64,000 bases of DNA from Bacteroidia bacterium (GTDB lineage Bacteria > Bacteroidota > Bacteroidia > SpSt-205): positions 48,396 through 112,395 of the forward strand of contig JBCNVG010000013.1 in the NCBI GenBank assembly GCA_039630325.1. The letters are read 5' to 3'. This document shows, piece by piece, positions 4,886-42,413 of the stretch (positions are counted from its first letter, which is position 1; each line of letters begins with the position of its first letter). The translations under genes were made by a program, and so were the position numbers. A model generated the notes under the pieces. It saw nothing but the letters and a program-made list of their open reading frames with translations. It made no database searches and had not been told where the DNA came from.

Positions 4886-5604
4886 AACTCTTCCAAATCT
4901 ACACCCTCCAAGTCAATCTCCTCCTCTTCTTCCATACCTTCGGGAAAGTCCATTTGAAAATCATAATCATCTTCCAAGTCCAGTTCCTCCTCCGTTTCAA
5001 TGGAAGGAAGTGCTTCCTCTCTAAGCAGCTTGTCAGGAGGTATATCTATTTCACCCAAGTCAAGTCCCAGTCCTTCTGCCTCATTGGATGTAGTAGACTT
5101 CGTTGCATTAGAGCCTCCAGAAGCCCCAAGGGAAGGCGAAGATACCCGCCCAGACAGAACCTTCTGAGTATGAGAAGAAGGAGATGCTGGAAGAAGAGCT
5201 GACCTCAAAGCGCTGGGAGTAGGTAACTCAGCATCCGTGATATACACCCGAGTAAAGGCCAAAACGGGACGAGATTGACGGGGCGGATAAACAAAAACAT
5301 GGTAGATTCCTCTCTTGCGAAAAATCAGTCGGCCCCAGTAAAGATTACGATTAACCTTTGAGCGATACAAAGCAAAGACGGACGCTGATCTCTTGGAAGA
5401 ACGCACCACTGCCCAGAGCGTATCTGGAGCTGGTGATGCCACAAATCTGGCTTCCATCCAGAGGTATAGTGGCGCTACCCGCAGCTGAAAAACGGTATCC
5501 ACTTCTAAAAGCCGATCCTGTGGCCCTATACCTTTCCCTACCCGAAGCTTCCCCTGAGTATAAATGAAGGCAGGCAAGCAGAAAAGGGAAATGCACCAGC
5601 GCAT
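4882..5604 (-). CDS. Hypothetical protein with a strongly acidic C-terminal tail
   Basis: 240-aa ORF that overlaps the DUF58 gene by 4 nt. No recognisable domain. The C-terminus (EEELDLEDDYDFQMDFPEGMEEEEEIDLEGVDLEEL) is low-complexity acidic. Confidence 0.35.
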   Translation of the reverse strand: MRWCISLFCLPAFIYTQGKLRVGKGIGPQDRLLEVDTVFQLRVAPLYLWMEARFVASPAPDTLWAVVRSSKRSASVFALYRSKVNRNLYWGRLIFRKRGIYHVFVYPPRQSRPVLAFTRVYITDAELPTPSALRSALLPASPSSHTQKVLSGRVSSPSLGASGGSNATKSTTSNEAEGLGLDLGEIDIPPDKLLREEALPSIETEEELDLEDDYDFQMDFPEGMEEEEEIDLEGVDLEEL

Positions 5605-25689: not shown

Positions 25690-25814
25690 ATCAATGCAAA
25701 CCTAAGATAGAAAATGTACTTCGGCGAAACCACATTTTTACCCTTGGTAAACAACTTGAAGTTCATATTATCTTTACAAGATCAGCACATGACTCAGAAA
25801 CAGGTAAACAAATG

Positions 25815-27239
25815 GGACGACTTCAAAGATACCTACGAAGCCTCACCCCTTCAGAATGGGAATCGCTTTACACCGAAGCCCAGAAGGAACTAAGAGGTCA
25901 CAAGATGCGCTCCCTACTGGAGCGTTTACGCCGCACCAGCGCCCCCCAAGTTCTAAACCCAACGGAAAAAGAACTCGCTAAACGCATAGAGCGTTGGATA
26001 TGGAAGCATGCCTTTATTCAGGCGCACAAGTCTCATCCCATATACGCTTCCCCTCCGATAGAATGGATTAGTAAAGGGGCTCTCCTCTATCATGCCAAGG
26101 GATTGTCCACAGATGCCCTTGCCTTACTGCGCGGTGAGGTCCATTTACCCCTGGAAAAATTGACACTCCTTTTCCTCAGACTCAAAATTCAAATAGAATC
26201 CGGCGCCGCTAAGAAGGCATCTAAAACTCTGAGGGAAATAGAGCACATCAGCGACCATTTGAGAAGATCTATCCAGCGCGAACGGCTCCAGCTTACCCTT
26301 TGGCGTCTCCTAAATGAATATGGGGGCTCCTACACTGAAATCGGTCAGCGCTTTTTGAGAAGATTAGAAAAGCACCCTTATTGGAAGCACACTCATGGTA
26401 CAGCCTCAGAAGAGAGTGTGGCAGATACTAACCTTCGGATATTATATGCCTTAGCGAAAGGAAACCCCATGGAAGCATATAAGCTGTGCCTTGATAAAAC
26501 CGCTCAATCCCATCCCAGCATCCTCCTCAACCGATGGCTATGTAGTATCATGCTAAAACATCCTCTAAGTGAATATCTATCCTACGACACCTTGTATACA
26601 ACCAAGCTCTCAGAATATGACAAAGCCACTCTCTTAAATCGCGTACTCTTAACCCTCCTGATTTACGGGTCGCCAGCTTACTTGACCTCTAAGCTATCTC
26701 TATTGGAGCATTGGTATTTGAGCTCCGGTTTCCTTCCAGAAAATGGTCTCGTGTGGCTACAACTGCTTTGGCTCTGCGGAAAGTCTGAAGAAGCTATCAA
26801 GCTATCAGAGAACCTATTAGAGAAAGTAGAAGGCAAACCCTTCACTTACATTCAAGTGGCACTTATGCTTCTGTTGATTTATGCTGAAAATCACAAATGG
26901 AATAAGCTCGTACAACATCTTCGGAGATTGCTTTACTGGCTAAAGAGAGTAGAGAAGTTCATCGCTTCAGCACCCGTAATGCATAAACTGCTCAGGCAGC
27001 TCTATCAGGCTCGATTGCGCCCACAGGTCCTTTCAGCAGTGGCTGAGAGGTGGAAAAAACATCTTGCCTCATACCCTACCGAACGCTACTTCTGGGAAAT
27101 TACCCTATTACCAGATTGGATTGAAGCCCGTCTCAGCCATCAAGGAATCATCGGATATCGCCAAAACGCCCACCGGGCTTCAGTCACCGATCTTGAAGCT
27201 TTGATTCAAAAAGCAACCCGGGTATTTCCTCCCTTGTGA
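25815..27239 (+). CDS. Hypothetical alpha-helical protein
   Basis: Long ORF with good coding character but no recognisable motif. The start is set at MGRLQRY (25815) because the track start at 25683 would overlap the divergent FGE gene start. Confidence 0.4.
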   Translation, partial: GRLQRYLRSLTPSEWESLYTEAQKELRGHKMRSLLERLRRTSAPQVLNPTEKELAKRIERWIWKHAFIQAHKSHPIYASPPIEWISKGALLYHAKGLSTDALALLRGEVHLPLEKLTLLFLRLKIQIESGAAKKASKTLREIEHISDHLRRSIQRERLQLTLWRLLNEYGGSYTEIGQRFLRRLEKHPYWKHTHGTASEESVADTNLRILYALAKGNPMEAYKLCLDKTAQSHPSILLNRWLCSIMLKHPLSEYLSYDTLYTTKLSEYDKATLLNRVLLTLLIYGSPAYLTSKLSLLEHWYLSSGFLPENGLVWLQLLWLCGKSEEAIKLSENLLEKVEGKPFTYIQVALMLLLIYAENHKWNKLVQHLRRLLYWLKRVEKFIASAPVMHKLLRQLYQARLRPQVLSAVAERWKKHLASYPTERYFWEITLLPDWIEARLSHQGIIGYRQNAHRASVTDLEALIQKATRVFPPL

Positions 27240-27385: not shown

Positions 27386-30352
27386 TTGCGTCTCATGAAG
27401 AGTGTTTTGCTTTTCGTAGGAACTGTACTGCCCCTTTTAGCCCAAGAAATTCTTCTGAGAAGGGTTCAGAAAGCTTCAAATCCAGCTTCTCAAACTCCTC
27501 CAGTTGAGAGCCAAGCCCCCCTTTATCTCAAAGGAAAAGTGGTTGACGCAAATACTCGCGAACCCCTAATGGGAGCGTATATTAGAATTCCTGGCAGTGT
27601 CGTGGGAGCTATAACCGATTCTCACGGGGAGTTTCGTATCCCCACGACTCTCACAAGCCCAATATCAGTAGAGGTTCAATACCTCGGATATCAGACGCAG
27701 CAGGTACTCCTCCATCCAGCAAAAGAAAATGCTGCTTCAACTGAGATTGCTCTAAAAGAAGAAGAAATCGTTGGTCAAGAGGTGGTAATCTCAGCTTCTC
27801 GGATAGAAGAGCAATTCATGAAAACCCCTGTCCAAATCGCTCAGCTATCAAGCTTGGCGCTACGAACAAGTCCCAGCCTCCTATCAGCTCAAACTTTATC
27901 CTTTCTACCTGGGATAGATGTGGTGCACACCAGTCTTACCTTCCCGGTGGTAAATAGTAGGGGGTTCAACTTTACTCAGAATCCTCGCTTCATCAACCGC
28001 GTAGATGGAATAGAAATGCAATCTACAGCTCTAAATGTACCTGTTCTCACCTTCACAGCACCTCCTGAAATAGATATAGCGAATGTAGAAGTAGTCGCTG
28101 GCCCTGCTTCTGCTCTATACGGCCCCAATGCGTTCAATGGAGCGATGATAACGACCCTAAAAGACCCTTTCCAATATCCAGGCCTGTCTGCCCATGTGAG
28201 ATTAGGTATAAACCACGTAGGAAACTCTCAACGAGGTAACGCAGCCCCTTTATATGACTTTCAAGCTCGATATGCTCGGAGTTGGAATAATCGACTGGGT
28301 GTCAAGGTGGCTTTACATGGACTTTCAGGAGAGGATTGGTGGGCCACAGACCGTTCCGATCGCGGCATATATGCTGGTGCGTCCTATCCCTACGACATAC
28401 CTGGGCCCCATAACCCTGGCTATGTACCTCTCAACGGATATGGGTATGATGCCCGAGTACTTTTACGCAACTTTCCTTTGCCCTTCTTCGATGGCACTCG
28501 CATGCCTGACTTCTATCTGAGTCGGACAGGCTACATGGAAACCGAGTTGGTCTCTAACAAAGTTCAAATTGCGAAGATTACGGGGGGCCTATTTTACCGG
28601 TTTTCTGACCAGCTCATGGGTCAGCTAACCTTTCATGTAGCGAATGGCCGCACCGTTTATCAAGCTAATACCCGATATTCTTTAGAAAACTTTCTTTTCC
28701 ATGCCTATAAAGCGGAAATAACCCACTCCAGGGGATTTTTACGGCTTTATACGATACAGGAGAATGGAGGACGCTCTATACCTCTTGGCCTCTTAGGGGT
28801 GAATCTTCTGCAAGCTGTCAAACCGCATTCGGACTGGTTTCCGCAGTATTTAGTCACCTATGCAGGTTTCTTAGATGGAATGATCTCTGCCCAAGACCGA
28901 GCGGCGTTTGAAGCCTACTATGGCCGTCCTGTTCCACAAATGGGAGATCACGCAGGGGCTCGATGGCTTGCGGACAGCGACACCCGGTTTTTAGCGACCC
29001 TTCCGTCTGCGGCTCCGGTAGTAGCTATCCTTGGCGGACGATGGGATGTAGGGCGAGCCCGTCCTGCCCCCAATAGCCCTGAACTGCGCCGCCTTGTAGA
29101 TTCTCTGAGTCGCATACCCATCACGCAAGGAGGGGCTCTCCTTGTAGATAGGTGCGCCTTACATCACGCAGAAGCTCAGTATGAGTTGCCCTCTATTTGG
29201 AATCTGCAAACCGTAGTTGGTGGCAGCTTCCGTCTATTTGAGATAAACTCTCGCGGCACCATTTTTGCTGATACCCTCGGAAGGCCCATTTACAACTGGG
29301 AAACCGGGGCTTACATTCAAACTCGGCGCCACCTTTGGGATGAGAGGCTTCAACTCACCCTGGGGCTACGATATGATTACAGACAATATTTGATTGGACA
29401 AATCACTCCTCGCACTGCCCTCAGTTGGAGCTGGGACCGAAAGAATAACCACATTCTCCGTCTGACCTATCAAATGGGCTTTCGTAATCCAACAAGTGAA
29501 GCCCTATTTATCCATCTCCAAACAGATGCCCTCCTGATCGGAGCGCTTCCTCAAACAGATAGAGCGTTGGGCATCGCAGGATTGAATAACTACACCAAGT
29601 CGTCCGTAGAAGCTTTTCGAGCGGCTCGAGCCCAAGGTGTCCCAATCGATGAAGCTGCGAAGCTCCTTCGCAGCCTCCCCATAAATGGTATTCGGCCCGA
29701 AAAAGTCCAGAGTTTAGAAGTAGGCTCACGCCATCTTCTTTTTGACCAGAAACTTCTCATAGATGTAACTTACGCTTATCAGCGATATAGAGATTTTCAT
29801 GGAAACGTCCGAATATATGGGCCAGCCGATAAGGTCAGCCAACTTTCACCGCAAGATGTTGAAAATGATCGTCTTTCTCCCCTCTATGGTCGTTACTTCA
29901 ACATTCCAGGAACCCCCCAAGCCCAGTTCTTTACTATTGCCCTCCAGTACCGAATCAACCGTTATCTCCTAGCCAATGCCAACTATACCTATGCCCAAGC
30001 TTGGGGATTAGAGGAGACAAAGAGTCTAGACCCTGGCCTAAACATGTTCTTCAACACCTCTCCTCATCGGGCCAATGCAGGTATCTGGATACAAAATCTG
30101 GGTCGCTGGAATGCCCAGTTATGGTATCAGTGGGTACATGCGTATCTTTTTGAGTTTCCCAACTATAAGGGTATTGTCCCGACTTACAACCTTCTCCATG
30201 CCCAGGTCAGTTATCGTCTGCCGCGATGGCATAGTGAAATACGGCTTGGGGCCCAAAACTTGTTGAACTTTTATCACATTCAGGTGCCTGGCGGCCCTCG
30301 CATCGGTGCTGTCTATTACATTCAGTACAGCTTTGATAGTTTGAGCCTGTGA
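27386..30352 (+). CDS. TonB-dependent outer-membrane receptor (carboxypeptidase-regulatory-like domain + plug + barrel)
   Basis: Signal peptide, then CarbopepD_reg signature (LKGKVVDANTREPLMGAYIRIPGSVVGAITDSHGEFRIP). Plug motifs follow (NSRGFN, VDGIEM, IANVEVVAGPASALYGPNAFNG), then a long beta-barrel region. Confidence 0.7.
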   Translation: MRLMKSVLLFVGTVLPLLAQEILLRRVQKASNPASQTPPVESQAPLYLKGKVVDANTREPLMGAYIRIPGSVVGAITDSHGEFRIPTTLTSPISVEVQYLGYQTQQVLLHPAKENAASTEIALKEEEIVGQEVVISASRIEEQFMKTPVQIAQLSSLALRTSPSLLSAQTLSFLPGIDVVHTSLTFPVVNSRGFNFTQNPRFINRVDGIEMQSTALNVPVLTFTAPPEIDIANVEVVAGPASALYGPNAFNGAMITTLKDPFQYPGLSAHVRLGINHVGNSQRGNAAPLYDFQARYARSWNNRLGVKVALHGLSGEDWWATDRSDRGIYAGASYPYDIPGPHNPGYVPLNGYGYDARVLLRNFPLPFFDGTRMPDFYLSRTGYMETELVSNKVQIAKITGGLFYRFSDQLMGQLTFHVANGRTVYQANTRYSLENFLFHAYKAEITHSRGFLRLYTIQENGGRSIPLGLLGVNLLQAVKPHSDWFPQYLVTYAGFLDGMISAQDRAAFEAYYGRPVPQMGDHAGARWLADSDTRFLATLPSAAPVVAILGGRWDVGRARPAPNSPELRRLVDSLSRIPITQGGALLVDRCALHHAEAQYELPSIWNLQTVVGGSFRLFEINSRGTIFADTLGRPIYNWETGAYIQTRRHLWDERLQLTLGLRYDYRQYLIGQITPRTALSWSWDRKNNHILRLTYQMGFRNPTSEALFIHLQTDALLIGALPQTDRALGIAGLNNYTKSSVEAFRAARAQGVPIDEAAKLLRSLPINGIRPEKVQSLEVGSRHLLFDQKLLIDVTYAYQRYRDFHGNVRIYGPADKVSQLSPQDVENDRLSPLYGRYFNIPGTPQAQFFTIALQYRINRYLLANANYTYAQAWGLEETKSLDPGLNMFFNTSPHRANAGIWIQNLGRWNAQLWYQWVHAYLFEFPNYKGIVPTYNLLHAQVSYRLPRWHSEIRLGAQNLLNFYHIQVPGGPRIGAVYYIQYSFDSLSL

Positions 30353-32442
30353 AAAAGGTATTTCTATATCTCACAGGGATAAGTATAGGATGGGGGGGGC
30401 CTTGCGAATCCTGTCAGGATGACGTTCTTTGTCTAAGTCGCTGCGCATATCAAGCCCTCTCTAATGCCCAGTCTAAGGAAGAGCTGCATGAGGCCACCCT
30501 TCTCTTGGCTTATAGCTGGCTTAGAGGTGATTTCGTGGAGGGGGTGCCTCGCCTGGTTTTCCCAGTTTTAGATGATCCGAAAGCCTCGGATTCCCTCCGC
30601 TTACAGGCCATATTGTTTTTAGCTCAAGCGCATTACAAGCTGGGACGACTCGACTCAGCAACTGTGTGGTATGAGCGAATAATTGAACGCAGCCAAGCTT
30701 ATCCTTTTCTAAAAGCACGAGCGCATTTGGGGTTAGCTGCCCTCTTAGCCAAGCGCAATCTCATGCAGGCTCTTAGCCAAGCGTCGGAAGCCAGCGAGAT
30801 CGCTGACCGAATCCAGTATCCTCTCCTGGTCGCTGTTGCTTACACCCAGTTAGCCTATCTCATGGCAGAGCAACGCAACCGGTCCCTCGCTCTTCAATAT
30901 GCTGAAAAAGCCGTTCAGGCCGCTCAAGTCGCACTTGATCAAAATCAACGCCACCTCCTTCTAAGCTCTCCGATGGAGACTTACCTAGCAGCGGTGGCTA
31001 ATTTAGCCTCATTATATGCTGAAGTCGGACGACAAAAAGAGGCGGAGTCGCTGTATCGTCGCATTTTATCTGAGGCTAAAAGCGATAGCCTTGCTATAGG
31101 CCAAGCTGTGATTGGATTAGCTTTACTTCACCTTCAAAATCGTTCATATGGAGAAGTAGAGCGCCTTCTGACATCTTATCATCCCCTTTTTAGCGCCTTG
31201 CCTTACGAACTTCGTAGGGAAGCCTTACGATTACAAGCCCAGCTTTACGTAGCCCAAAACCGCTTGGCCGCCGCTTTGTCTATCTATGAAAAGCTTTTAG
31301 AACAAGCCGAAACACAGGGCATGCAAGCACAGACCAATCGTATTGAGCAGCTTCGGACCTTAGCGGGCATAGAAGCTCAAGAAGCTCAACTGCGCAGTAT
31401 GGAGAATGCTCGCCGTAAAGAAAGGCTGCTGTACCTTAGCTTAGGAGGAATCGGAGTTCTGCTATTAGCTGTCATGGGATGGGCTACTTACATAGCCAGG
31501 AAACGAGCTTCTGAAGAGCGAAGCTTCCGAGATGTTATCGCTACTCAAGCTCAAAAGATACAAGAACAGACTCGGATGTTAGAGCAGCAAAATGCCGAGC
31601 TAATCCGAATCTCAGAGGTAATGACAGAGGCGCTGACCACAGTACAAGAATCTTACGCGGCCGCCCGACGGTTGCAAAGGGCTATCATGCCAGACATAGA
31701 AAAACTGATATCAGGTTCAGCCCTCTATTATCATCCCATGCAAGAAGTAAGTGGAGATTTTTATGTGCTTGCTTACGATCCCTCCACTGCACGCATTCTC
31801 GTCGCAGTTGGAGACGCAACCGGTCATGGAATCAGCGGAGCAATATTGGCGGGTATTTTTTCCTCTACCATACAAAATCTTTTTTATCGTAACCCTTCCC
31901 AATCTCCTCAATCTCTATTGAAGGGCCTACTAAAATCAATGCAAAGTTTTCTGAACTTAGATCCAGGGAGCAGAGCTGCTCCGTTGCGCGAGGGAGCAGA
32001 TTTAGCTGTTGGAATTGCTGACTTCCGCTATAAAAAACTGTATCTGGGATTAGCTGGAAGACCTGTTTGGCTACTCACACCAGAGGGATTGAAAGAGTTT
32101 GAAGGAGGGCGGCGTGGCATAGATAGTTACACGCCGCTTGATTACGAGTTTCGTGAGTATGAAGAGTCTTTGAATGAAGAGAGCTCTATTTTCCTTTTCA
32201 CAGATGGTATTTCTGATGCTCTTAGCCCAGATGGAAAGAAACTTGGTATCAAAGCTTTACGTGCTCAAGTAGAATCTGAAAGCTTTCTCACATCCACCGC
32301 AGGAGAGCAGCGAGATAAGATTGTTACTTTCCTGAATGAGTGGACCCAAGGAAGGCCTCCGAACGACGATGTCACTATGATTATTTTACCAATTCGATCA
32401 CTGTATGAATATGCCCAGGCTCGACTCTTGAAACAATCTTAG
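30349..32442 (+). CDS. TPR-repeat sensor fused to a PP2C/SpoIIE-family serine phosphatase, single TM
   Basis: N-terminal TPR region, a TM helix (LLYLSLGGIGVLLLAVMGWATYIA) and a C-terminal SpoIIE/PP2C domain (SGDFYVLAYD...VAVGDATGHGISGAILA...NDDVTMIIL). The GTG start overlaps the TonB-receptor stop (GTGA). Confidence 0.8.
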   Translation: MKKVFLYLTGISIGWGGPCESCQDDVLCLSRCAYQALSNAQSKEELHEATLLLAYSWLRGDFVEGVPRLVFPVLDDPKASDSLRLQAILFLAQAHYKLGRLDSATVWYERIIERSQAYPFLKARAHLGLAALLAKRNLMQALSQASEASEIADRIQYPLLVAVAYTQLAYLMAEQRNRSLALQYAEKAVQAAQVALDQNQRHLLLSSPMETYLAAVANLASLYAEVGRQKEAESLYRRILSEAKSDSLAIGQAVIGLALLHLQNRSYGEVERLLTSYHPLFSALPYELRREALRLQAQLYVAQNRLAAALSIYEKLLEQAETQGMQAQTNRIEQLRTLAGIEAQEAQLRSMENARRKERLLYLSLGGIGVLLLAVMGWATYIARKRASEERSFRDVIATQAQKIQEQTRMLEQQNAELIRISEVMTEALTTVQESYAAARRLQRAIMPDIEKLISGSALYYHPMQEVSGDFYVLAYDPSTARILVAVGDATGHGISGAILAGIFSSTIQNLFYRNPSQSPQSLLKGLLKSMQSFLNLDPGSRAAPLREGADLAVGIADFRYKKLYLGLAGRPVWLLTPEGLKEFEGGRRGIDSYTPLDYEFREYEESLNEESSIFLFTDGISDALSPDGKKLGIKALRAQVESESFLTSTAGEQRDKIVTFLNEWTQGRPPNDDVTMIILPIRSLYEYAQARLLKQS

Positions 32443-32533: not shown

Positions 32534-33091
32534 TCAGTTCTGACCTCTATTCATGATAGGTCTCTGTGCAGGTGCGCGTGACGGCACGGTCGCAGGGCGC
32601 CTATCAGCAGTAGTGTAAGAACACTCAGATTCTCCTTCGTAGGAGAAGTTATCGTCTTTCACAGAGACTCGCATCCGAATGATGAGCTTACCTCCCTGCA
32701 AGACGCCTGTACCCTCCTGTGTCTGACCAAGAACGCCCGTTTGCGAAGGAAACCGTAGCTCGGTAGAAGAGACCACATCGGCTACAAGGGAGTCTTCCAT
32801 GGATGCAGAAGCGGTACCACCAGGACCGCTTGAGCTGGCCTGCGCACGACTGAGTAAAATAAGACGCTTAGGATTTTGTGGATCCTTTCGGATACTCAAG
32901 ATTCCACTTGCAGTGTGTTGACTACCTGTATCATCCATGGGCTGAGAGGACTTGATAACCCGATTCTTACAGGGACCTTCCAATCGCCAAGTGCCCACAA
33001 AGGCATCGCGCAGATCCTGCTGCGCCCACAGAGCCGCTGCACCGAGTGCCACGGCATACAAACCGAATCGAACGATGGAATGATGTATCAT
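32534..33091 (-). CDS. Hypothetical secreted protein
   Basis: Clear signal peptide (MIHHSIVRFGLYAVALGAAALWAQ). No recognisable domain. Confidence 0.4.
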   Translation of the reverse strand: MIHHSIVRFGLYAVALGAAALWAQQDLRDAFVGTWRLEGPCKNRVIKSSQPMDDTGSQHTASGILSIRKDPQNPKRLILLSRAQASSSGPGGTASASMEDSLVADVVSSTELRFPSQTGVLGQTQEGTGVLQGGKLIIRMRVSVKDDNFSYEGESECSYTTADRRPATVPSRAPAQRPIMNRGQN

Positions 33092-33890
33092 AGGCTTGTA
33101 GATTTACCATTTCTACGAGGTAATATTGAGTCGAATTGGACTGGACCTTTGGATCATTTGAATAGCCGTCGCTACGCACTTCTAAGAGACAAGCATTTGA
33201 GCGTCCCGGCACGCTCCGCAAACTGAATGTCCCACAGAAATACAGGCCATTTTTGGCATCTTCTCGAAGGACTCCCGCTTTCCGCAGCATCATTCCGACT
33301 CCTTGGTCAGCTCGCTTAGATCTATCAAACCAGCCCTGATCTAAGTTAGCGATTATGATTGGCTCCTTAGGATTGGGTACGAGGACCATGATTTCGCGAC
33401 TGGGGCCAGAGAAATAACTAACTGAGGTTCCACGGGGATGTTCTATTTCCAGACGGAATCCTCCATCCCTGCATAAAGTACTCCTTCGCTTCACTTTATC
33501 CCCTTCACAACCGCGATCATAATAAAGCCCCTGAGCTAAGATTAGCTCAATTCCATTCACCCTACCTATATGAAAGCTCTCGTACTTGTTAGCCACATGA
33601 GGTACAGGAGGGGGGGAGGGATCATTGACCAAATGCTCATCTTCAGGAAAACCGAATTCGATGGTAGAGGACTTGACTACATACTCCCTTTTGGGTTGTC
33701 CAGCTAAACAGCGGATGGCAAAGGTTCCGGTAGTTTTCTGGATGGGCGTTACGGGGGTGAAAGAAATACGCTGCCACATCGTACCAGAGAGCTGCTGGAG
33801 TTCCGACACACTCACTGACCGAATACGCACCTGGGCATGAATAAGAGCTATGATAGCTCCCCCATAGCGCATGAAGTAAACGAAGCGCAT
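32967..33890 (-). CDS. Hypothetical protein
   Basis: 307-aa ORF. Its 3' end overlaps the downstream ORF by 125 nt in another frame, so the boundaries or integrity are uncertain. Confidence 0.3.
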   Translation of the reverse strand: MRFVYFMRYGGAIIALIHAQVRIRSVSVSELQQLSGTMWQRISFTPVTPIQKTTGTFAIRCLAGQPKREYVVKSSTIEFGFPEDEHLVNDPSPPPVPHVANKYESFHIGRVNGIELILAQGLYYDRGCEGDKVKRRSTLCRDGGFRLEIEHPRGTSVSYFSGPSREIMVLVPNPKEPIIIANLDQGWFDRSKRADQGVGMMLRKAGVLREDAKNGLYFCGTFSLRSVPGRSNACLLEVRSDGYSNDPKVQSNSTQYYLVEMVNLQAYDTSFHRSIRFVCRGTRCSGSVGAAGSARCLCGHLAIGRSL

Positions 33891-33915: not shown

Positions 33916-34464
33916 TTACTGGAACGTAACCTTGAAGCTTCCTTCGGTTACTCGAACTGAGTCTGTGGGATTGAAAGCGCTGCCTTGTCCTAATCCCCCG
34001 TACAACATACCGCTAAAAGTTCCTTCTGCTCGATTGCCTCGGACATTGACGGTGAGAGTGAGATTAGCACCAGAAGCAGTCGGATGAGGGGCAGAATATC
34101 CGCGTCTCCCTTGTGGTCCATGATGAGTGTAAAGAAGCTGAGGGGTTCTATCTGAGCCGGAATCTCTACCTGTGAAAGTATAGGAGGTATCAGAACCCGT
34201 AGTCGGAAGAGGAAGATCCGTGATAGTGATAGAGAATGTATCTCTGCCTTCATATAATATCCCTATCAAACCCCCATAGTTGTCTCTTTGCATCGCCGAT
34301 ACCATGGGGAACTGCTTCAAAGTTCCTTGGATTTTGGCTTGAAGGGAGTTGTCCCCTAACATGCCTCCGCCAGTCGGGGAGTTGGGGTCTTTTTTATCCT
34401 TCTTACAGGCAGAGAAAGTCAGCAAGCTGACCACCGCCACTATGTTCGTAATACGCCTTCTCAT
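33916..34464 (-). CDS. Hypothetical lipoprotein, member of a tandem paralogous triplet (A)
   Basis: Lipobox at internal start MRRRITNIVAVVSLLTFSAC-KKDKKD. C-terminal motifs AEGTFSGMLYG and TDSVRVTEGSFKVTF are shared with the two upstream genes. Confidence 0.55.
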   Translation of the reverse strand: MRRRITNIVAVVSLLTFSACKKDKKDPNSPTGGGMLGDNSLQAKIQGTLKQFPMVSAMQRDNYGGLIGILYEGRDTFSITITDLPLPTTGSDTSYTFTGRDSGSDRTPQLLYTHHGPQGRRGYSAPHPTASGANLTLTVNVRGNRAEGTFSGMLYGGLGQGSAFNPTDSVRVTEGSFKVTFQ

Positions 34465-34465
34465 A

Positions 34466-35032
34466 TCAAAATCGGATTTGGAACTCTCCATCTGTGATTT
34501 GGAGCGAGTCAGTAGGCTCTGCGGCATCGTAGACCCAACCTGAAAAACTGCCTTGAGCTGTATTGTTAGATACCGACACCTGCATGGTAAAGCGAGGCGG
34601 CTTGGAGGCTGTATGCGAGGCGTAAATGGAGTCACCTCTGGAGCGGACGATAGAAAGGATAAAAACGAATGTACTAGTTTGGGCAGGCGTAATATTTACA
34701 GTGTAGTTGGTATCAGGACGACTTTGGGGATAGGCAAAAGAAATGGTGCATTCAAGCGTATCGGTGGGGCGATTTAGCCTGTGGGAGAATGCGTGAGCGC
34801 GACCATACATATACCCAGACTCCTCCACATAAAACTTGAGCAGTTCGCCGCGCAGCCTAAACTGGATCGTACCCAAGGAGGGGTCTCCGCCACTACCGCC
34901 TCCCCCTCCACCACCGCCACCAGAGTTCTGTCCAGAGCCTGGATCATCTTTATCCTTCTTCTTGCATGCGGGGCTACTTACTACAAAAAGTCCAAACAGC
35001 CCCCATAGAAGCATTTTCGAATATCGCCTCAT
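34466..35032 (-). CDS. Hypothetical lipoprotein, tandem paralog (B) with poly-Gly linker
   Basis: SSPAC-KKKDKDDP lipobox, a G9SGG linker, and the shared motifs PQSRPDTNYT, AQGSFSGWVYD and TDSLQITDGEFQIRF. Confidence 0.55.
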   Translation of the reverse strand: MRRYSKMLLWGLFGLFVVSSPACKKKDKDDPGSGQNSGGGGGGGGGSGGDPSLGTIQFRLRGELLKFYVEESGYMYGRAHAFSHRLNRPTDTLECTISFAYPQSRPDTNYTVNITPAQTSTFVFILSIVRSRGDSIYASHTASKPPRFTMQVSVSNNTAQGSFSGWVYDAAEPTDSLQITDGEFQIRF

Positions 35033-35046
35033 AAGAATTAGAGCTT

Positions 35047-35580
35047 TCAAAATCGTAAGCGAAACTCTCCATTTGTAATGCGCACTGAATCAGACGCCTC
35101 CCAATAGTTGTACAACAACCCACTAAAAGTTCCCTGAGCTATATTACCTGATGAGATTCTAAGCTGCACATCTAAACGAGAATAACGATTCCCATGACGA
35201 GCACTGGTGATGTAATACTTGCGCGCTGGATACAAAACTACTCGGAACTCCCCTCCCACTACGTCATTTCGGGCATTAAGTTGATAAGAAGTATCTGTGC
35301 GACTGGTCGGAAGAGGGAAATCAAGGACGAACTCAATCGTATCGCTGCCTACGATTAGGGTGTCTGTAGAGTGAATATACTCCGGTCCAAACCCCGCTGC
35401 CTTGTAGCTTAGAAAGGGAGTATAGGTAAAGGTTCGGCCATTCGCTTGGAAGCTTACCCGATTATCCGTATAAAGCCCTGATCCAGTCCCTCCACTCGCC
35501 GGCTCATCTTTCTCCTTCTTCTTACAGGCCAAGCTCCCTATCATAAGGAACCCAAGAAGGTAGACCTGATAGTGCCTCAT
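35047..35580 (-). CDS. Hypothetical lipoprotein, tandem paralog (C)
   Basis: GSLAC-KKKEKDEP lipobox and the shared motifs PLPTSRTDTSYQ, AQGTFSGLLYN and SDSVRITNGEFRLRF. Confidence 0.55.
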   Translation of the reverse strand: MRHYQVYLLGFLMIGSLACKKKEKDEPASGGTGSGLYTDNRVSFQANGRTFTYTPFLSYKAAGFGPEYIHSTDTLIVGSDTIEFVLDFPLPTSRTDTSYQLNARNDVVGGEFRVVLYPARKYYITSARHGNRYSRLDVQLRISSGNIAQGTFSGLLYNYWEASDSVRITNGEFRLRF

Positions 35581-35638
35581 AGCCCAGCGAGGCAAGTGGC
35601 TACAAAGGGTTACTGGTGAGAGACGCATACATCGAGCT

Positions 35639-36166
35639 CTATTTTAGGTTTTTGCCAGAGGAGCCACACTCTCCCACATATTCTCCTATCATTCGATAGC
35701 TCATGACCTCCGCTTCACCACGCCAAAGCTTGTATTCGCCCTCAAACTTTGTTTCGGAGAAAGTAATGTCTATCTCCCCTCGCATATTAGGGCAGACCAG
35801 ATCATAACGCATACGACCATCCTGAATGCGCAGATTTTCAAACTTGCAGTCAGGAATAGGGGACTGACCGTCAGAAGGTACCCCACCAAATGGAGCCCGC
35901 TTTGCTTGCGCCATCATTTCATCCATGCAGAACTCTGTCTGCATTTCTGGGAGCATTACCTTTAGCCTCATTTTCTCAAAGCTCTCTATGCGCGTGCGCA
36001 CTCGCCAGAGGCCCGTCTTGAAGAACATCGATGCTCCCTTGGAAGTATTGATTTCTGCTAACGAGGAAGATTCGTCTCTCTTGTACTCGTTGGCCTTTTC
36101 CGAAGAGGAACAGGCCCCTGCTAAGAGCAAAATACCCAAAAATCCTGTCAACTTAGCCCAGCTCAT
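35639..36166 (-). CDS. Small Cys-containing lipoprotein (DUF3617-like)
   Basis: Lipobox LLLAGAC-SSS with conserved Cys spacing (FCMDEMM...PDCKFENL...DLVCPNMRGEIDITF). Confidence 0.45.
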   Translation of the reverse strand: MSWAKLTGFLGILLLAGACSSSEKANEYKRDESSSLAEINTSKGASMFFKTGLWRVRTRIESFEKMRLKVMLPEMQTEFCMDEMMAQAKRAPFGGVPSDGQSPIPDCKFENLRIQDGRMRYDLVCPNMRGEIDITFSETKFEGEYKLWRGEAEVMSYRMIGEYVGECGSSGKNLK

Positions 36167-36169
36167 ATC

Positions 36170-37279
36170 TCAATAGGTTCTTTTTTCTTTCGGAAGCTGA
36201 GCATTTAGGTTTTGACAAAGGGGACGACGCTCACGACCCCATTTTTCATATTCTGCACTGCCTAAACCCGCTGCAACGGCTCGCTTATACCACTCCTCGG
36301 CTTTGTCTACTTCGCAGAGCGCATCATACAGCACGGCAAGATTATAAGCGGCGCGTTTGGCAGGGGTCTTTTTACCAGAGTTCGCTTCCTGTTCCCATAT
36401 ACGGATAGCTTCATTCCAGTGGCGTCCAACAACGGCAGCCTTCGCTTGCTCCAGCGCAGGAGAGCCTTTCACAAAAAACCGCACCGTCATGTCTTCGTAA
36501 AATGGGAAGCAAGGACAGATGCGGTGGATATATTCCTCTACTGCGTAAGTATGGGCTTGGGAGGCAGCCCCTGAATAGCCATAATAACTACCCCGAGCAC
36601 TACCCGTAGTGGTAGCTTCATCTATTACCTTGCCTGTCTTAGGATCATACAGACGAAACCCAGCCAAAACCTCTGGTCTTTGAGGGGAGCCCCCAGGGAG
36701 CAGACTTTCTAAGACCAAAATGGCTTGAACATCAGGAACCTTCTTGTGAATCTTTTTGAGACTATCTAAGGGCAAGGGAGGCGGAAGGGAGCCTTCAGTG
36801 CTGCCGGCCCATTTGAGCTCTTGGCCCGCCATGAGAGGCTCGAAGCGCCCACAAGCTTTGAGTCGATCGTGAAGCTGCTGGAGGGCCAGTTGAGGCGCTC
36901 GCTCCAGCCACTTTTCATCTAATATGCCGGTCAACGCTCCACTCGTCGCCCCATAAGCTGCTCCTGTCACTCCTCCCGTAAGAGCCCCATATACAGCTCC
37001 CTGGGCTACCCCTCGGTTTTTGTATTCCTCCATGATGCGCTTGCGCTCAGCTTCAGGTATCGTGCTGCGATTGACCAAAGCAATCTTCTTGATATCCTTA
37101 GGAAGCTCTATCTCAGAAGGTCGCCACTCTCGAATACGCGCAGAATAGTACGGATTGCACCCCCCCATCATCCATATTAGTCCTACAAGGAATACCCGAG
37201 CCTTTCTACTTCTACTCAATCCAGACTTGATGCTATCAGTGGGATTAGCTATCGCTGAGACAGGTACATATGGTAACAT
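36170..37279 (-). CDS. Hypothetical lipoprotein with glycine-zipper segment and C-terminal TPR-like helices
   Basis: MMGGC lipobox-like site, a GAVYGALTGGVTGAAYGATSGALTG glycine zipper, and a C-terminal helical repeat (AAYNLAVLYDALCEVDKAEEWYKRAV). Confidence 0.45.
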   Translation of the reverse strand: MLPYVPVSAIANPTDSIKSGLSRSRKARVFLVGLIWMMGGCNPYYSARIREWRPSEIELPKDIKKIALVNRSTIPEAERKRIMEEYKNRGVAQGAVYGALTGGVTGAAYGATSGALTGILDEKWLERAPQLALQQLHDRLKACGRFEPLMAGQELKWAGSTEGSLPPPLPLDSLKKIHKKVPDVQAILVLESLLPGGSPQRPEVLAGFRLYDPKTGKVIDEATTTGSARGSYYGYSGAASQAHTYAVEEYIHRICPCFPFYEDMTVRFFVKGSPALEQAKAAVVGRHWNEAIRIWEQEANSGKKTPAKRAAYNLAVLYDALCEVDKAEEWYKRAVAAGLGSAEYEKWGRERRPLCQNLNAQLPKEKRTY

Positions 37280-37562
37280 ACCGTGGTCAAAGTTAGAAGG
37301 CTATGAAGGCCAATGATGCATGCATTTTGAATGCACTGTGAAGCTCAGGAAACAAACTACTTTATCACAATAAACTGTTTTTCAGCATTTTGCAATGAAA
37401 ACTTGTTGATTCAGTCATGGGCTAACCTACTCGCTAATTCCTGCGCTTATATCCAAATAGCTCAGCGTGCAGAGAAGAAGCTGGCTTTCAACCGTAGCCA
37501 GCTGGTATTTCTGCTATCAGGTCTGTAAGTCTGATTGCGATTCAGGCTGTTCTAAAAAGCAG

Positions 37563-37943
37563 TCAAAGAGAAGCGGAACGCTGCTCTTCTTTGTATTTAG
37601 ACGGGCATTTCATGAGAATTTTTTCTGCATAAAAGGCAGTATCCTGATAACGCCCTATCAGTACCACCCGCTGAGCTGCATCGAAGTTTATAGGCTTAGG
37701 ATCTGGGTAATGCACCCATCGTACCGTTCCGAGCGTATCTTTGGCTTGAAAGGAAAAGAGGTCCTTCTGGGGATCGTAGTAACTCTGCTCTCTATTTACC
37801 CATTCAGCGACAATATGGTAGGATTTGGAAGGGTTCTTTTCCGCAGTGCGAAAGTCTGAGTATATCGTAAGCTCATCTCCCAAACTCATGAGAAGGAAAA
37901 CGAGCACTCCAGCCACAGCGATGGCCCCTATCAGAAGCCGCAT
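37563..37943 (-). CDS. CcmE-like OB-fold protein (cytochrome c maturation heme chaperone family), CxxxY variant
   Basis: 126 aa with an N-terminal TM anchor, a soluble OB-like domain, and a C-terminal ...KILMKCPSKYKEE in which CPSKY takes the place of the canonical HxxxY heme-binding motif. Confidence 0.4.
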   Translation of the reverse strand: MRLLIGAIAVAGVLVFLLMSLGDELTIYSDFRTAEKNPSKSYHIVAEWVNREQSYYDPQKDLFSFQAKDTLGTVRWVHYPDPKPINFDAAQRVVLIGRYQDTAFYAEKILMKCPSKYKEEQRSASL

Positions 37944-37994
37944 GACGCGAAGTAAAACATTATTGAGGCTGAGTGTGTACCTTTGTTCAAAGTA

Positions 37995-38078
37995 GCCCAG
38001 ATGGCGGAACAGGTAGACGCGCCAGTCTCAAAAACTGGTGGAGGCAACTCCGTGCCGGTTCGAGTCCGGCTCTGGGCA
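37995..38078 (+). tRNA. tRNA-Leu (anticodon CAA)
   Basis: The sequence folds as a cloverleaf by hand. Acceptor GCCCAGA/TCTGGGC+A, anticodon stem CCAGT/ACTGG with loop CTCAAAA, a long variable arm, and a TTCGAGT T-loop. Confidence 0.85.
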
Positions 38079-38135
38079 CGAGCCCTCCGAGGACTAAAAA
38101 AAACTCTCGTCAGAGCCCTCCTACTAATAGGCATT

Positions 38136-41100
38136 TTGTGGGCTACTCTACTGGTAGGGATTTACCTCCTTCTCTCCACCGAGACGGGGCATAATATCAT
38201 TCGCCAGCAAGTCGTCCGCTCTATTTCAGAAGCGCTTGATACGGAAGTAGAAATACAGAGCCTTCGCCTCTCTGGGATAGCCAGTATTTCCATAGAGGGT
38301 TTTGTCCTCTACGATAAAGCCTGTCAGCCCTTCATCCGTGCGCCTGAGCTGCGAATAACTTGGTATCCATTCGCATTTTGGCAAGGTCTGTGGGTAGGAC
38401 GAAAGCGAATTCCATTTTCAGCCATAGAACTGATTAGGCCCCAAGTGTATATATACACTGAACGCGCTTCTAAGCTAACGAATGTAAATCGCTTATTCGC
38501 TACCTCCGATACTACCCCCTCTAAGCCGAGTGAGTGGAAAGTGAGCCTTCCCTCGGTGGAGCTCCACAATGGACAGTTCATATGGATAGATTCCACCCTA
38601 CCTGCCTTGGAACTCACCCCCAGGCCAGGTTTTCTGCGATACGGCCACCTGCGAATGGATTCAATATTTTTAGAAGCCAAAGTAGAATGGAGTGGAAAGG
38701 GTATCCTTTTTACCCACATAAAAAGCCTTCAGCTCATAGAATCCAACTCTGGTATGCCCCTTCACCAGCTTAGCCTTACCCTTCAAGCTTATCCAGACAG
38801 CGTCCGAATCCCGCATTTATTCATTCAGCTACCGAAGAGTAAGATAACAGGCAAGGGGTATTTCCCCTATGAAGGTTTAGACAAACTCTTCAAGAGCACC
38901 GAGACTAAGCTATTTTATGCCGAGCTTACTGGCCAAGTAGACTGGTCAGAGATAGCTGCTTTGGTGGGAAATTCTCTACCCTTACGGGGGGTGTGGGAAA
39001 CTCACATCCATCTCCATGGAGATCTATACCGATTTCACGCAGACAGCTTTTATGCTCGCATCTCCTCCCAAACTTTCCTAAGAGGAAGCGGGGAAATAAC
39101 CCGCTATGCTAAACCCAACCTGATGCGATGGAATGTTTTTACCATGGAAGCAGAATTCACATGGAATGATCTCGCTGCGTCTATTCCTGAAATTGGTCCT
39201 CCTTTACCCGATTGGCAGGGAAGTCATGTGTGGAAAATCCGAGGCAGTCATGAGGGACGGCTTGACTATTACACAGCCGATGTGTACAGCTTAGGCGCCC
39301 ACATTCAGGGTGCGCTTCGTAGGGACACGGCATGGAACTATGATCTGCATGCAGAATTCAATCATTGGCAGCTACCCCCTATCTTAGAAACGCCCATCAC
39401 GACGATTGCCAATGGCACCATCCATCTTCAGGGTACAGGATTCAGCTTAGAAAACCTCCAATCTGAACTCCGCTCTGATCTTACTCTCTTGGACACCGCG
39501 GGAAAAGCCTGGGCCGTACAAATCCAAGCTGACCTTCGAGAGGGCACGGCAGATGGAAAATTTTCTCTGCATACCCCCTATGGAAAACTTAACTATGCAG
39601 GACAACTGCCTCTAAGCGTCTCAGGGACCTATCAGGGCTCAGGTACTTTCGCTGACATTTCAGGCTCCTTATGGGGAGGCAAAGGCACCCTTAGTGGCAA
39701 CTTCAAGGTAGAAGGGAAAGACATACCATGGAAAAATGGAGCTGCCCAACTTTATCTCAAAGACTTGCTCTGGCAGCAAATAGACACTACCTACGAACTG
39801 GGAGCAGGCTCATTGTCTGTACGCAATGGCAATGCTTATGATCTCCAGGCAGAGGGGCTCTCCCTGTCAGCGAAAACAAATGGCGCTTGGCTCAAAGCGC
39901 TATCCCAATGGCTAAGCTATTGGATTCTGAACGATACGATCCACCTTGACTCCCTACCGTCCTCATGGGCGATCCAAGGCAACTTTCATCTAAGAAATCC
40001 AGCCTGGATAGCGGTCTTTGGACTGCCTCCTGAACTTCGCCTACACAACTTATCTGTCTCTATCGCTATACAAGCAGAGGCTACCTTCCCCGCAGGAGAG
40101 CTTCAGGCCACAATTGACAGCCTAAGGTACGCAGACTTGATATTCCACTCGCCCCATCTCTCAGCGCATCTGAGAGGAGATTCCCTAAATGTACAGTTTG
40201 GCTCAATTCATGGAAAGGCTTATCTTGAGTACAAAAGTCTGCACGGTAGCTTGACGGGGACATGGCGCAAGGGTAGTCTTACTATCGGTACTCACTTCCA
40301 TGAATGGAATGACTCAGCAAGACTGGCGTTGGAATGGGATTACTCCCCTCCCATGCTCAGCGTACAGCTAAATAAAGAAGCCTCTGCCTTGATGCTTGGA
40401 GGGTACCCTTGGCAATTTATTGAAGCATTTCCTCTACTCTTCAATACCGAAAATGGAGAATGGGAGCTCAAAAGCCTACGATTAGAAGGACTCCAAGCCC
40501 AAGTAAACCTTTATCGTTTAGAGCGACGGTTATTTTTAAACATATCACGATTTCCCTTATCAGTAGGTGGAGAACTTCTGGGACTAAAGGCTTCCATCGG
40601 AGGGGACCTTTCCCTTCTCTGGGAAGCCTACGAAAGAGGTGCACGATTTGCCCTGGAGATAGACTCGCTTCAGTATGAGCAGCAGCAGTATCCACACATT
40701 CAAGTGGTAGGCGTGCCTTCAAACGATTCCATTCCCTTTCAACTTTTTATACGTGATGAGAATAGCACGTGGATGACAGGGCAAGGCATTTACAAGCTGA
40801 ACGATACTGTATCCCCAATATACGCAGAGCTCCGTTCTATACGAATACCTGTGCGTTGGTTTGATCCTTTCATAGGAGAGTACATTCAAAATATCAAAGG
40901 CACTTTACTTTCTCAGCGGCTCATTCTACAAGGGAAGCCCAATAGTCCCAATATCTACGGTGAGCTTTTTTGCAATAATGTCAGTTTCTACCTGCCTATC
41001 ACAAGAGTAAGCTACACGGTGGAGGGAGTGCTTCGTTTACGAAAAGATACGATATTTTTTCCGAATGTAGAGCTGCGTGAAGCTCAGGGTAAACGAAGTT

Positions 41101-42413
41101 ACATCAACGGTACCATCAACTTGCGCAGCTGGCAATCACCCTATTTAGAGCTTACGCTTCGACTTAAGGACAGGCCGTTTCTCATGGCTGCCTCTTCAGC
41201 AACAACCGATGCCTATTTATATGGCCGCGCTGAGTTGGAAAACGGCTATCTCTCCATCACAGGCCCTTGGAACAAACCTTTCCTTCGGGGGGAGATTACA
41301 TTTTCCGGTAGTACTGAACTTACCCTCCCTTTACGCACCTATGAGAGAAATATAGGAGCCGAACATGTGCGATTTGTAGCCTCTAAAGATACTACAGACA
41401 CTACCCTCATTCCCCCATCTCCCACAGCGCCATCAGGTTTAGATATCCGAGTAGCCATTCGATCAGTCCCAGAAGCTAAGTTTAGATTGCTCTTTGACGA
41501 ACGAACGGGTGATGAAATTATAGCTCGAGGGGCATCCAATTTGCTATTCTCCATCGATCGAATGGGCCAAATAAGCCTATCAGGGGCTTATGAAATTCAA
41601 GATGGGGAGTACCGAATCAACCTGCAAGGCATCGTTTCTAAACGGCTGCAACTGGAACCCGGGAGCCGAATAAGCTGGGATGGCGACCTCTACCAAGGCC
41701 AAATGAATATCACAGCCACCTATCGAACCTTCTCCTCTCTGCGAATGATCGATACTACTTTTACTCAGACTATTCCAGTAGAGCTGAGAGTAATTTTGAG
41801 GGGTAGTTTACTCTCTCCAGTGATGAACTTTCAGATTGATATACCCTCACTCTCTGGCACGCCCACCCCTATGGTGAATCTTTTTCTCCAAAGGTTAGCT
41901 ACGGACGAGCAGGAGCGTAACCGCCAAGTCTTCGCCCTACTTGTCCTGGGGACTTTCGTACCATTAGAACAAGGTTTTGGTTCTCAGCAGGTAAGGTCAG
42001 GGGTAAGCTCTACTTTGGCTGAGTTTATTTCTGCTCAACTTGCTAGCTGGGTTGGGCAAATGTTGGGAAGCCAAGTAGGAGTAGCATTTGCTCTTGGGGA
42101 GTGGAATGAGCTATCCGCCCAGCTGCGCATCTCCCTGGGTCAGCGCCTCACGATAGAAAGAGATGGCGTGCTGATTTCTCCTGGCCAAAGTGCCGCCAAC
42201 ATAGGTAATCTTTCCGCCCGCTATCGCCTAATACCTAAGAGAGTCACCCAACCCACCCAGTGGCAGCTGGAAGCCGAGGGATTCAGCCGACAAAGCTTTA
42301 TGTGGGGAGCAGCGGGAGCTACCAGCCAAGGGGCCGGACTGCGTCTGCGAAAAAGCTTCTATCTACCTCCTCGCCGGCAGAACCGAATAGGCCAAGAAGA
42401 AAAGAGAAAATAA
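38136..42413 (+). CDS. TamB/AsmA-like translocation-and-assembly module protein (DUF490 C-terminus)
   Basis: About 1450 aa, beta-rich, with an N-terminal signal-anchor helix (LIGILWATLLVGIYLLLS) and a C-terminal DUF490-like region. The start is uncertain. The track ORF begins at a TTG inside the tRNA. The candidate starts are a GTG at 38052 (inside the tRNA) or the TTG at 38136. An A8 run lies at 38096-38103. Confidence 0.6.
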   Translation: MWATLLVGIYLLLSTETGHNIIRQQVVRSISEALDTEVEIQSLRLSGIASISIEGFVLYDKACQPFIRAPELRITWYPFAFWQGLWVGRKRIPFSAIELIRPQVYIYTERASKLTNVNRLFATSDTTPSKPSEWKVSLPSVELHNGQFIWIDSTLPALELTPRPGFLRYGHLRMDSIFLEAKVEWSGKGILFTHIKSLQLIESNSGMPLHQLSLTLQAYPDSVRIPHLFIQLPKSKITGKGYFPYEGLDKLFKSTETKLFYAELTGQVDWSEIAALVGNSLPLRGVWETHIHLHGDLYRFHADSFYARISSQTFLRGSGEITRYAKPNLMRWNVFTMEAEFTWNDLAASIPEIGPPLPDWQGSHVWKIRGSHEGRLDYYTADVYSLGAHIQGALRRDTAWNYDLHAEFNHWQLPPILETPITTIANGTIHLQGTGFSLENLQSELRSDLTLLDTAGKAWAVQIQADLREGTADGKFSLHTPYGKLNYAGQLPLSVSGTYQGSGTFADISGSLWGGKGTLSGNFKVEGKDIPWKNGAAQLYLKDLLWQQIDTTYELGAGSLSVRNGNAYDLQAEGLSLSAKTNGAWLKALSQWLSYWILNDTIHLDSLPSSWAIQGNFHLRNPAWIAVFGLPPELRLHNLSVSIAIQAEATFPAGELQATIDSLRYADLIFHSPHLSAHLRGDSLNVQFGSIHGKAYLEYKSLHGSLTGTWRKGSLTIGTHFHEWNDSARLALEWDYSPPMLSVQLNKEASALMLGGYPWQFIEAFPLLFNTENGEWELKSLRLEGLQAQVNLYRLERRLFLNISRFPLSVGGELLGLKASIGGDLSLLWEAYERGARFALEIDSLQYEQQQYPHIQVVGVPSNDSIPFQLFIRDENSTWMTGQGIYKLNDTVSPIYAELRSIRIPVRWFDPFIGEYIQNIKGTLLSQRLILQGKPNSPNIYGELFCNNVSFYLPITRVSYTVEGVLRLRKDTIFFPNVELREAQGKRSYINGTINLRSWQSPYLELTLRLKDRPFLMAASSATTDAYLYGRAELENGYLSITGPWNKPFLRGEITFSGSTELTLPLRTYERNIGAEHVRFVASKDTTDTTLIPPSPTAPSGLDIRVAIRSVPEAKFRLLFDERTGDEIIARGASNLLFSIDRMGQISLSGAYEIQDGEYRINLQGIVSKRLQLEPGSRISWDGDLYQGQMNITATYRTFSSLRMIDTTFTQTIPVELRVILRGSLLSPVMNFQIDIPSLSGTPTPMVNLFLQRLATDEQERNRQVFALLVLGTFVPLEQGFGSQQVRSGVSSTLAEFISAQLASWVGQMLGSQVGVAFALGEWNELSAQLRISLGQRLTIERDGVLISPGQSAANIGNLSARYRLIPKRVTQPTQWQLEAEGFSRQSFMWGAAGATSQGAGLRLRKSFYLPPRRQNRIGQEEKRK

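Follow-up and report, generated by a model that had tools for sequence, protein, structure and literature searches.

We analysed a stretch of 64,000 nucleotides (hereafter the window) from an uncultured, hot-spring-type metagenome-assembled genome (MAG) labelled "Bacteroidia bacterium" (GCA_039630325.1, contig JBCNVG010000013.1, forward-strand positions 48,396 to 112,395). A preliminary description of its sequence had pointed out three tandem, paralogous lipoprotein genes on the minus strand (window positions 33,916 to 35,580), and this observation is confirmed. The three genes, here called A, B, and C, descend from a triplication that is older than the divergence of at least three MAG lineages; their products form, by profile comparison, a divergent, lineage-restricted branch of the uncharacterised Riean_0653/DUF5025/DUF6252-like Bacteroidota lipoproteins of about 160–190 residues. 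On balance, and by a small degree, we favour the reading that they are tethered, non-enzymatic beta modules, anchored in the outer membrane, that serve for binding or as scaffolds within an envelope operon and that were sub-functionalised after the old triplication.

Three tandem paralogous genes

Paralogue A (35047..35580, minus strand) runs from an ATG at 35580 to a TGA at 35047 and encodes 177 residues, with the putative lipidated cysteine at position 19, a tether of the type KKKEKDEP/Gly-Ser, and a predicted all-beta domain of about 140 residues. GenBank gives this gene as ABDH66_02130, with 182 residues and a TTG start at 35595, and the longest open reading frame (ORF) that covers it in the six-frame ORF list reaches 35628. 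Paralogue B (34466..35032, minus strand; ATG at 35032, TGA at 34466; 188 residues) has its cysteine at position 23 in an atypical lipobox, followed by a KKKDKDDP tether with a Gly9-Ser-Gly2 linker and the same predicted beta domain. Paralogue C (33916..34464, minus strand; ATG at 34464, TAA at 33916; 182 residues) combines the lipobox FSAC and a KKDKKDP tether with this same domain, to which it adds a GGLGQGSAF loop ahead of the last strand. Both the ORF list and the reading of the sequence bear out the strand and the spacing first described, with exactly 14 nt between A and B and 1 nt between B and C. The GC content of the array equals that of the remainder of the window.

The three proteins share an N-terminus made of a basic start and a hydrophobic segment up to the Cys, then a segment of Lys, Asp, and Glu (CKKKEKDEP in A, CKKKDKDDP in B, CKKDKKDP in C), and then a Gly/Ser-rich stretch. 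Their alignment, which had been proposed as a check, was made with MAFFT and shows that the shared motifs are collinear. These are a first motif (PLPTSRTDTSYQ in A, YPQSRPDTNYT in B, PLPTTGSDTSYT in C), a second one (AQGTFSGLLY, AQGSFSGWVY, and AEGTFSGMLY, respectively), and a C-terminal one, (S/T)DS..(I/V)T.G.F...F. The motifs of the preliminary description are thus present, but the patterns in which they had been written were too strict for B, where the second Pro is missing, and for C, which has AEG and KKDKKD.

When signal peptides and tethers are removed, the proteins match one another in BLASTP searches (A-B: E 2e-17, 35% over 100 aa; A-C: E 4e-13, 33% over 161 aa; B-C: E 2e-10, 37% over 57 aa), a similarity that is far above chance; the full-length identity among them is 30–36%. 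At the DNA level, the residual similarity consists of patches of 20–55 nt with 60–83% identity, at a spacing of 523–581 nt (double between the outer copies). Because only such short patches remain, in the expected register, the duplication is probably old, and we rejected recent gene conversion among the paralogues.

The same three genes occur in the same order in other Bacteroidia MAGs, in one lineage represented by the loci L001, L008, and L009 and in another represented by L005 and L010. The identity between orthologues is 62% for A and A', 76% for B and B' (65% in the third lineage), and 68% for C and C' (56% in the third lineage), well above the 28–35% found between paralogues across these lineages. 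Since the orthologues of each copy group together, apart from those of the other two, in three lineages, the triplication is older than the split of these lineages, and the proposal of diverged tandem paralogues from an old duplication, with about 30% identity, holds.

By the Nei-Gojobori method, pN between orthologues is 0.15–0.30 and pS, which is saturated, 0.63–0.77; dN/dS is about 0.08–0.15 where computable. With ratios of about 0.1, the copies are all under purifying selection. The A copy is a pseudogene in the L005/L010 lineage (L005:6196-6690, the same as L010:5838-6374), where the lipobox Cys is replaced by Trp, the ATG is absent, and a frameshift lies ahead of, or removes, the last strand. 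Copies B and C are intact in these loci. Paralogue A is therefore dispensable in that lineage.

The linker of B is encoded by a run of mixed GGN codons (34885..34920, minus strand), which had been thought capable of slipping. The comparison with other lineages does not support this: the B linker of the sister lineage (G12) has the same length of 12 residues even though the synonymous sites are saturated, and we rejected slippage given this unchanged length and the mixed codons. Tandem Repeats Finder reports one weak, imperfect 9-nt repeat in the run (34887-34922, 74% matches, score 44), and the linker of the third lineage, GGSGGSG, is different and shorter. The Gly run is a flexible tether, and we found no sign of variation driven by slippage.

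Lipoprotein signals, family placement, and predicted fold

We searched for lipoprotein signals with a rule of the PROSITE PS51257 type (a basic N-terminal region, then an uncharged hydrophobic stretch, then a lipobox and its Cys within the first ~35 residues). The rule is passed by A (GSLA before the Cys), by C (TFSA before the Cys), and by 50 of 57 family members, and the family alignments all show almost no variation at the lipobox Cys. The preliminary description had given a signal peptide and a lipobox Cys to all three proteins. A hydrophobic segment ending in Cys is indeed found in each; the lipobox of B is atypical, with a Pro at position -2, where its orthologues also carry Pro or Leu. 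We regard A, B, and C as predicted signal peptidase II-type lipoproteins.

The signal for the export of lipoproteins to the cell surface (LES) is of the type C-X-K-(D/E)2-X or S-D-D-D-D and requires an overall negative charge (PMC5080379). The segments of A (CKKKEKDE), B (CKKKDKDD), and C (CKKDKKDP) do not contain the canonical LES, and have a net charge of +1 or +2 over positions +2 to +9. Lysines occupy positions +2 to +4 after the Cys in the window proteins, including position +4 in A and B. By the LES rules, A, B, and C are not predicted to flip to the cell surface, and since the post-Cys segment lacks the canonical signal, they would probably face the periplasm. As these rules may not hold in this lineage, we treat the localisation as inferred.

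To place the proteins, we searched exhaustively 1.84 billion representatives with HMMER, using a single profile built from the three mature domains and one orthologue. This gave 26 proteins at E<=1e-3, eight of them at E<=1e-10. Three of the 26 (P0010, P0012, and P0013) were discarded as artefacts, being long repeat proteins that sum weak matches of generally about 5–12 bits each. The remaining matches are lipoproteins of 156–233 aa with a common C-terminus, GTFSGxLY...DSxxITxGxF. A word-seeded profile search of 5.8 billion proteins returned 37 matches, all of them unnamed or called "hypothetical" or "Lipoprotein", with four annotated as DUF6252 (PF19765). The loci L014-L017 were not accepted as members, because they match essentially in the signal peptide and lipobox (E values with the hidden Markov model [HMM] from 5e-7 to 1.5e-5).

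None of the Pfam and NCBIfam models reaches its cut-off for A, B, or C. For Riean_0653_fam (NF052634), with a cut-off of 57 bits, the scores are 27.7 (A), 14.8 (B), and 15.1 (C). The alignment of A to this model is end-to-end (E 4.5e-6, residues 1-176 to model positions 1-175 of 176), that of C covers residues 8-179 (model 5-174), and B aligns at the C-terminus only. The model is matched by 16 of 25 family members (best E 3.1e-11), and the relatives form a graded series of scores up to 54.2 bits (P0044), still below the cut-off. For DUF5025 (PF16428), the gathering threshold of 26.8 bits is reached neither by A (22.2) nor by B (17.0), C has no match, and the best score in the family is 26.5. 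The match is limited to profile positions 118-158, i.e., to the C-terminal ~40 residues with the last two beta strands, and is found in 12 of the 25 members. DUF6252 gives no direct match for A, B, or C at E<=1 and a weak match in one of the 25. In contrast to these scores, hhalign aligns the tight family with ten Riean_0653-like relatives over 151 columns with 99.4% probability (E 1e-21). Only the branch of the window proteins has the motif PxSRxDTSY. The preliminary description had not recognised the family; the profile matches and hhalign identify A, B, and C as sub-threshold, distant relatives of Riean_0653_fam, DUF5025, and DUF6252. We also looked for a match to a well-characterised lipoprotein family, which had been named as a result that would speak against that description, and none matches.

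Whether homologues are always arrayed in tandem had been raised as well. They are not: outside this lineage, they are mostly single-copy and in unrelated contexts, e.g., among unrelated housekeeping genes in L002/L003/L012, L004/L011, L013, and L018-L022. The only other tandem case seen is a pair in the metagenomic contig L007 (L007:1579-2762, Logan SRR27730022), in which a 209-aa protein ending in EGTLYD...ITEGTFRI is followed by P0011. The tandem arrangement is therefore specific to the lineage and not a trait of the family. A scan of all window ORFs with the family HMM found no further members beyond A, B, and C; the downstream 307-aa and 185-aa proteins and the DUF3617 protein were rejected as extra paralogues since they have no match to it.

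The literature search found no paper mentioning DUF6252, DUF5025, DUF6340, or DUF3617. The only functional datum in the wider group is the phenotype of Riean_0653: transposon mutants of this gene in Riemerella anatipestifer lose haemolytic activity, which is restored by complementation, and the recombinant protein has no haemolytic activity (PMC7881567). In that haemolysis screen, 7 of 24 genes were iron-related (PMC7881567).

The fold is predicted to be an all-beta domain of about 140 residues on a Lys/Asp- and Gly-rich tether. AlphaFold2 models made with alignments of 25 and 52 sequences (pLDDT 79 and 81, pTM 0.69 and 0.76) show 35–40 disordered residues at the start, then 9–11 beta strands, mostly with tight hairpin connections. 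Foldseek found nothing in the PDB at E<=0.001, the best match of the full-length model having an E of 0.2. The best matches of the mature domain are structures of mycobacterial LpqH (4zjm, 4xin, and 7fds), which are non-significant (E 0.05–0.18, TM 0.34–0.47), and other weak ones are up-and-down barrels (avidin, OmpX, lipocalins, and FABP-like proteins). The viral library BFVD gave no Foldseek match, and a sequence search of the PDB with three family profiles found nothing significant. Matches to catalytic families were found for none of A, B, and C in Pfam, NCBIfam, or the PDB.

Genomic context of the array

The array lies in a cluster of seven genes on the minus strand. The first gene (36170..37279) encodes a DUF6340 lipoprotein of 369 aa with a Gly-zipper and C-terminal tetratricopeptide repeats (TPR), and the second (35639..36166) a DUF3617 lipoprotein of 175 aa. 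The DUF3617 gene lies 58 nt before A and adjoins the array in all arrayed loci. Downstream, a gene for a secreted protein of 307 aa (32967..33890) starts 25 nt after C, and the last gene of the cluster (32534..33091) encodes a secreted protein of 185 aa with a signal peptide and a GTW motif. These two ORFs gave no match in the family search. The gaps in the cluster are, in order, 3, 58, 14, 1, and 25 nt, and the last two genes overlap. The order DUF6340-DUF3617-A-B-C(-260 aa)-181/185 aa is conserved in L001, L005/L010, L008, and L009: the orthologues of the 307-aa gene have 260 aa and the gene is absent from the L005/L010 lineage, whereas the gene for the 185-aa protein (181/185 aa in orthologues) is kept after C in L005/L010, L008, and L009. 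Every product of the cluster carries a signal peptide or a lipobox, which makes it look like an envelope operon, and the spacing of the genes suggests that they are co-transcribed. The 307-aa ORF extends about 45 codons beyond the stop codon of its orthologues (...LIEW*; window 32967-33130, minus strand) and overlaps the next gene by 125 nt, which is due either to a lost stop codon or to a sequence error.

The -7 promoter consensus of Bacteroidota is TAnnTTTG. An element matching it, TAACTTTG (37288..37295, minus strand), was read in the sequence 9 nt upstream of the DUF6340 start, and TAACTTTG is a candidate promoter element of the cluster.

Directly upstream of the cluster is a gene for a CcmE-domain protein of 126 aa (37563-37943, minus strand; Pfam E 1.4e-10), which is kept in L009 and is not beside the cluster in L001 and L005. 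Its KCPSKY stands at what we take to be the place of the haem-binding HxxxY motif of E. coli CcmE, and the protein may therefore be a CxxxY-type variant of CcmE; phmmer found no match to it in the PDB. A TamB-like gene (1476 aa, 37983-42413, plus strand) is divergent from the CcmE-like gene and the lipoprotein cluster and is syntenic in L009. On the other side, on the plus strand (27386-32442), are a TonB-dependent receptor-like gene (CarboxypepD_reg and Plug, 988 aa) and a TPR-SpoIIE phosphatase gene (697 aa), a pair that L009 lacks and that makes up an insertion of about 5 kb; in L009, the orthologues of window 25683-27239 and 24187-25689 come directly after the cluster. Further away are a giant ORF of 2397 aa (16958-24151, minus strand) and then a gene with an FGE-sulfatase domain (24187-25689).

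Part of the cluster shows a mosaic pattern across lineages. A cassette of about 3.3 kb, composed of the 3' two-thirds of the DUF3617 gene, A', B', C', the 260-aa gene, and the 181-aa gene, is found at L009:5472-8800, L001:7660-9652, and L008:1-3250. These loci come from different MAGs, and the cassette is about 99–100% identical among them from DUF3617 through A, B, and C and across most of the 260-aa gene, dropping to 93–99% between L008 and L009 over the last ~750 nt. L009 and L001 are about 100% identical from position 5472 (inside DUF3617) onward, but only 65–70% identical in the left flank upstream of it, and past ~8800, in the right flank, L008 and L009 are unrelated. The flanks of L009 are syntenic with the window, with protein identities of 92% (DUF6340) and 86% (CcmE-like), whereas its cassette proteins are only 58–80% identical to those of the window. 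The contig of L001 ends inside the cassette, and that of L008 begins at its left edge. Either the lineages have exchanged the entire cassette by recombination, or the mosaic is a chimera produced by assembly.

Candidate functions and comparison with known systems

In the reading that we favour, each protein would have a signal peptide of the signal peptidase II type, a Cys that carries the lipid, a charged tether of Lys and Asp lengthened by Gly/Ser, and a single all-beta domain of about 140 residues. It would be expressed as part of the seven-gene envelope operon (DUF6340, DUF3617, A, B, C, and the two secreted proteins). The three proteins would be anchored in the outer membrane on flexible tethers, probably facing the periplasm, and may have a binding or scaffolding role, each copy having become specialised, after the triplication, for its own partner or ligand. 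Several points weigh against it. The lipobox of B (SSPA before the Cys) fails the lipobox rule, solely through the Pro at -2. The LES rules derive from mesophiles, namely Capnocytophaga, Bacteroides, and Flavobacterium, and might not apply in this lineage, in which the conserved K/D-rich post-Cys segment could be a sorting signal of its own. The pseudogenisation of A in L005/L010 means that the three copies are no obligate trio. Co-transcription is deduced from the spacing, and the scan for sigma-70 promoters and terminators was uninformative, with nothing above the background. Any ligand or partner of the proteins is hypothetical.

The post-Cys segment, if it were a non-canonical export signal, would also fit a different explanation, in which the three proteins are surface-exposed, fast-evolving receptors, adhesins, or shields. 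Their cassette would be diversified and swapped by homologous recombination under pressure from phages, predators, or competitors, and the paralogues would be antigenic or functional variants. The near-identity of the cassette in L001, L008, and L009 amid divergent or unrelated flanks points in this direction, as do the faster evolution of these proteins relative to their neighbours, seen when the syntenic flanks of L009 and the window are compared, and the loss of one copy in one lineage. Yet the canonical LES is absent, the selection on orthologues is overall purifying and not diversifying, and no phage or defence context was found. Two of the three contigs end or begin within the cassette or at its edge, so that the mosaic itself could be an artefact of a chimeric assembly of the metagenome. 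We thus regard this explanation as rather unlikely. We give still less weight to a speculative extension of it, in which the segment that begins in the 3' part of DUF3617 and takes in A, B, C, and the genes of the two secreted proteins would be a self-contained envelope cassette, exchanged whole by homologous recombination. In this scenario, A, B, and C would form a heteromeric tethered assembly, with the DUF6340 protein as a TPR scaffold, making a variable cell-envelope device, e.g., for receptor masking or ligand capture. If true, such an exchanged heteromeric cassette would represent an envelope module of a type new for Bacteroidota, and the exchange of the whole cassette between lineages, if real, would point to selection on the cell envelope.

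A role in haem or iron handling, with A, B, and C as small haem- or metal-binding accessory lipoproteins feeding a TonB-dependent transporter or a CcmE-type chaperone, seems to us improbable. It is suggested by the nearest curated family, named for Riean_0653, whose mutants lose haemolysis in a screen with several iron-related genes, and by a Tyr (DTSY / GTYT) conserved across the family. However, the score of A against Riean_0653_fam (27.7 bits) falls far short of the cut-off of 57 bits, and the recombinant Riean_0653 protein is not haemolytic. Two neighbours also suggest this role but are not conserved. In the window and in L009, the CcmE-domain gene directly precedes the cluster on its strand, but it is not next to the cluster in L001 and L005, and the TonB-dependent receptor-like gene, 3.6 kb away, belongs with the SpoIIE gene to an insertion missing from L009, on the opposite strand. 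Neither a haem-binding motif nor a fold match of this kind was found in A, B, and C. It is hardly credible, finally, that one or more copies are decaying duplicates without a function of their own. The clear pseudogene of A in L005/L010 and the atypical lipobox of B would fit such decay, but the frames in the window are all intact with ATG starts, the residues that are invariant in the family are kept in all three proteins, and each copy has an orthologue with a dN/dS of about 0.1. We therefore retain the tethered beta modules of an envelope operon as our working explanation.

The finding is real but fairly ordinary: it leaves the current understanding unchanged and makes no long-standing question testable. 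Bacteroidota encode very many small lipoproteins that are functionally uncharacterised, and this locus adds to them a divergent branch marked by a motif that is peculiar to it (PxSRxDTSY). The locus is also among the few cases in which members of the group lie in a conserved envelope operon, which provides a handle for guilt-by-association analyses and for the prediction of complexes.

Among known systems, the closest resemblance is with Riean_0653_fam, which also comprises Bacteroidota lipoproteins of about 160–180 aa and with which the window proteins have in common the C-terminal signature GTFSGxLY...DSxxITNGxF and an N-terminal xxINGxxF strand. Unlike that family, the window proteins have the PxSRxDTSY motif, a long Lys/Asp/Gly tether, and a triple array within a DUF6340-DUF3617 operon. 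The likeness to DUF5025 is limited to the C-terminus, with sub-threshold scores. DUF6252 proteins are of the same size class as A, B, and C and are also lipoproteins; the link to them is transitive, via the profile matches. The mycobacterial LpqH (19-kDa) is likewise small, all-beta, and lipid-anchored, and at 6–12% identity we claim a resemblance to it, not homology.

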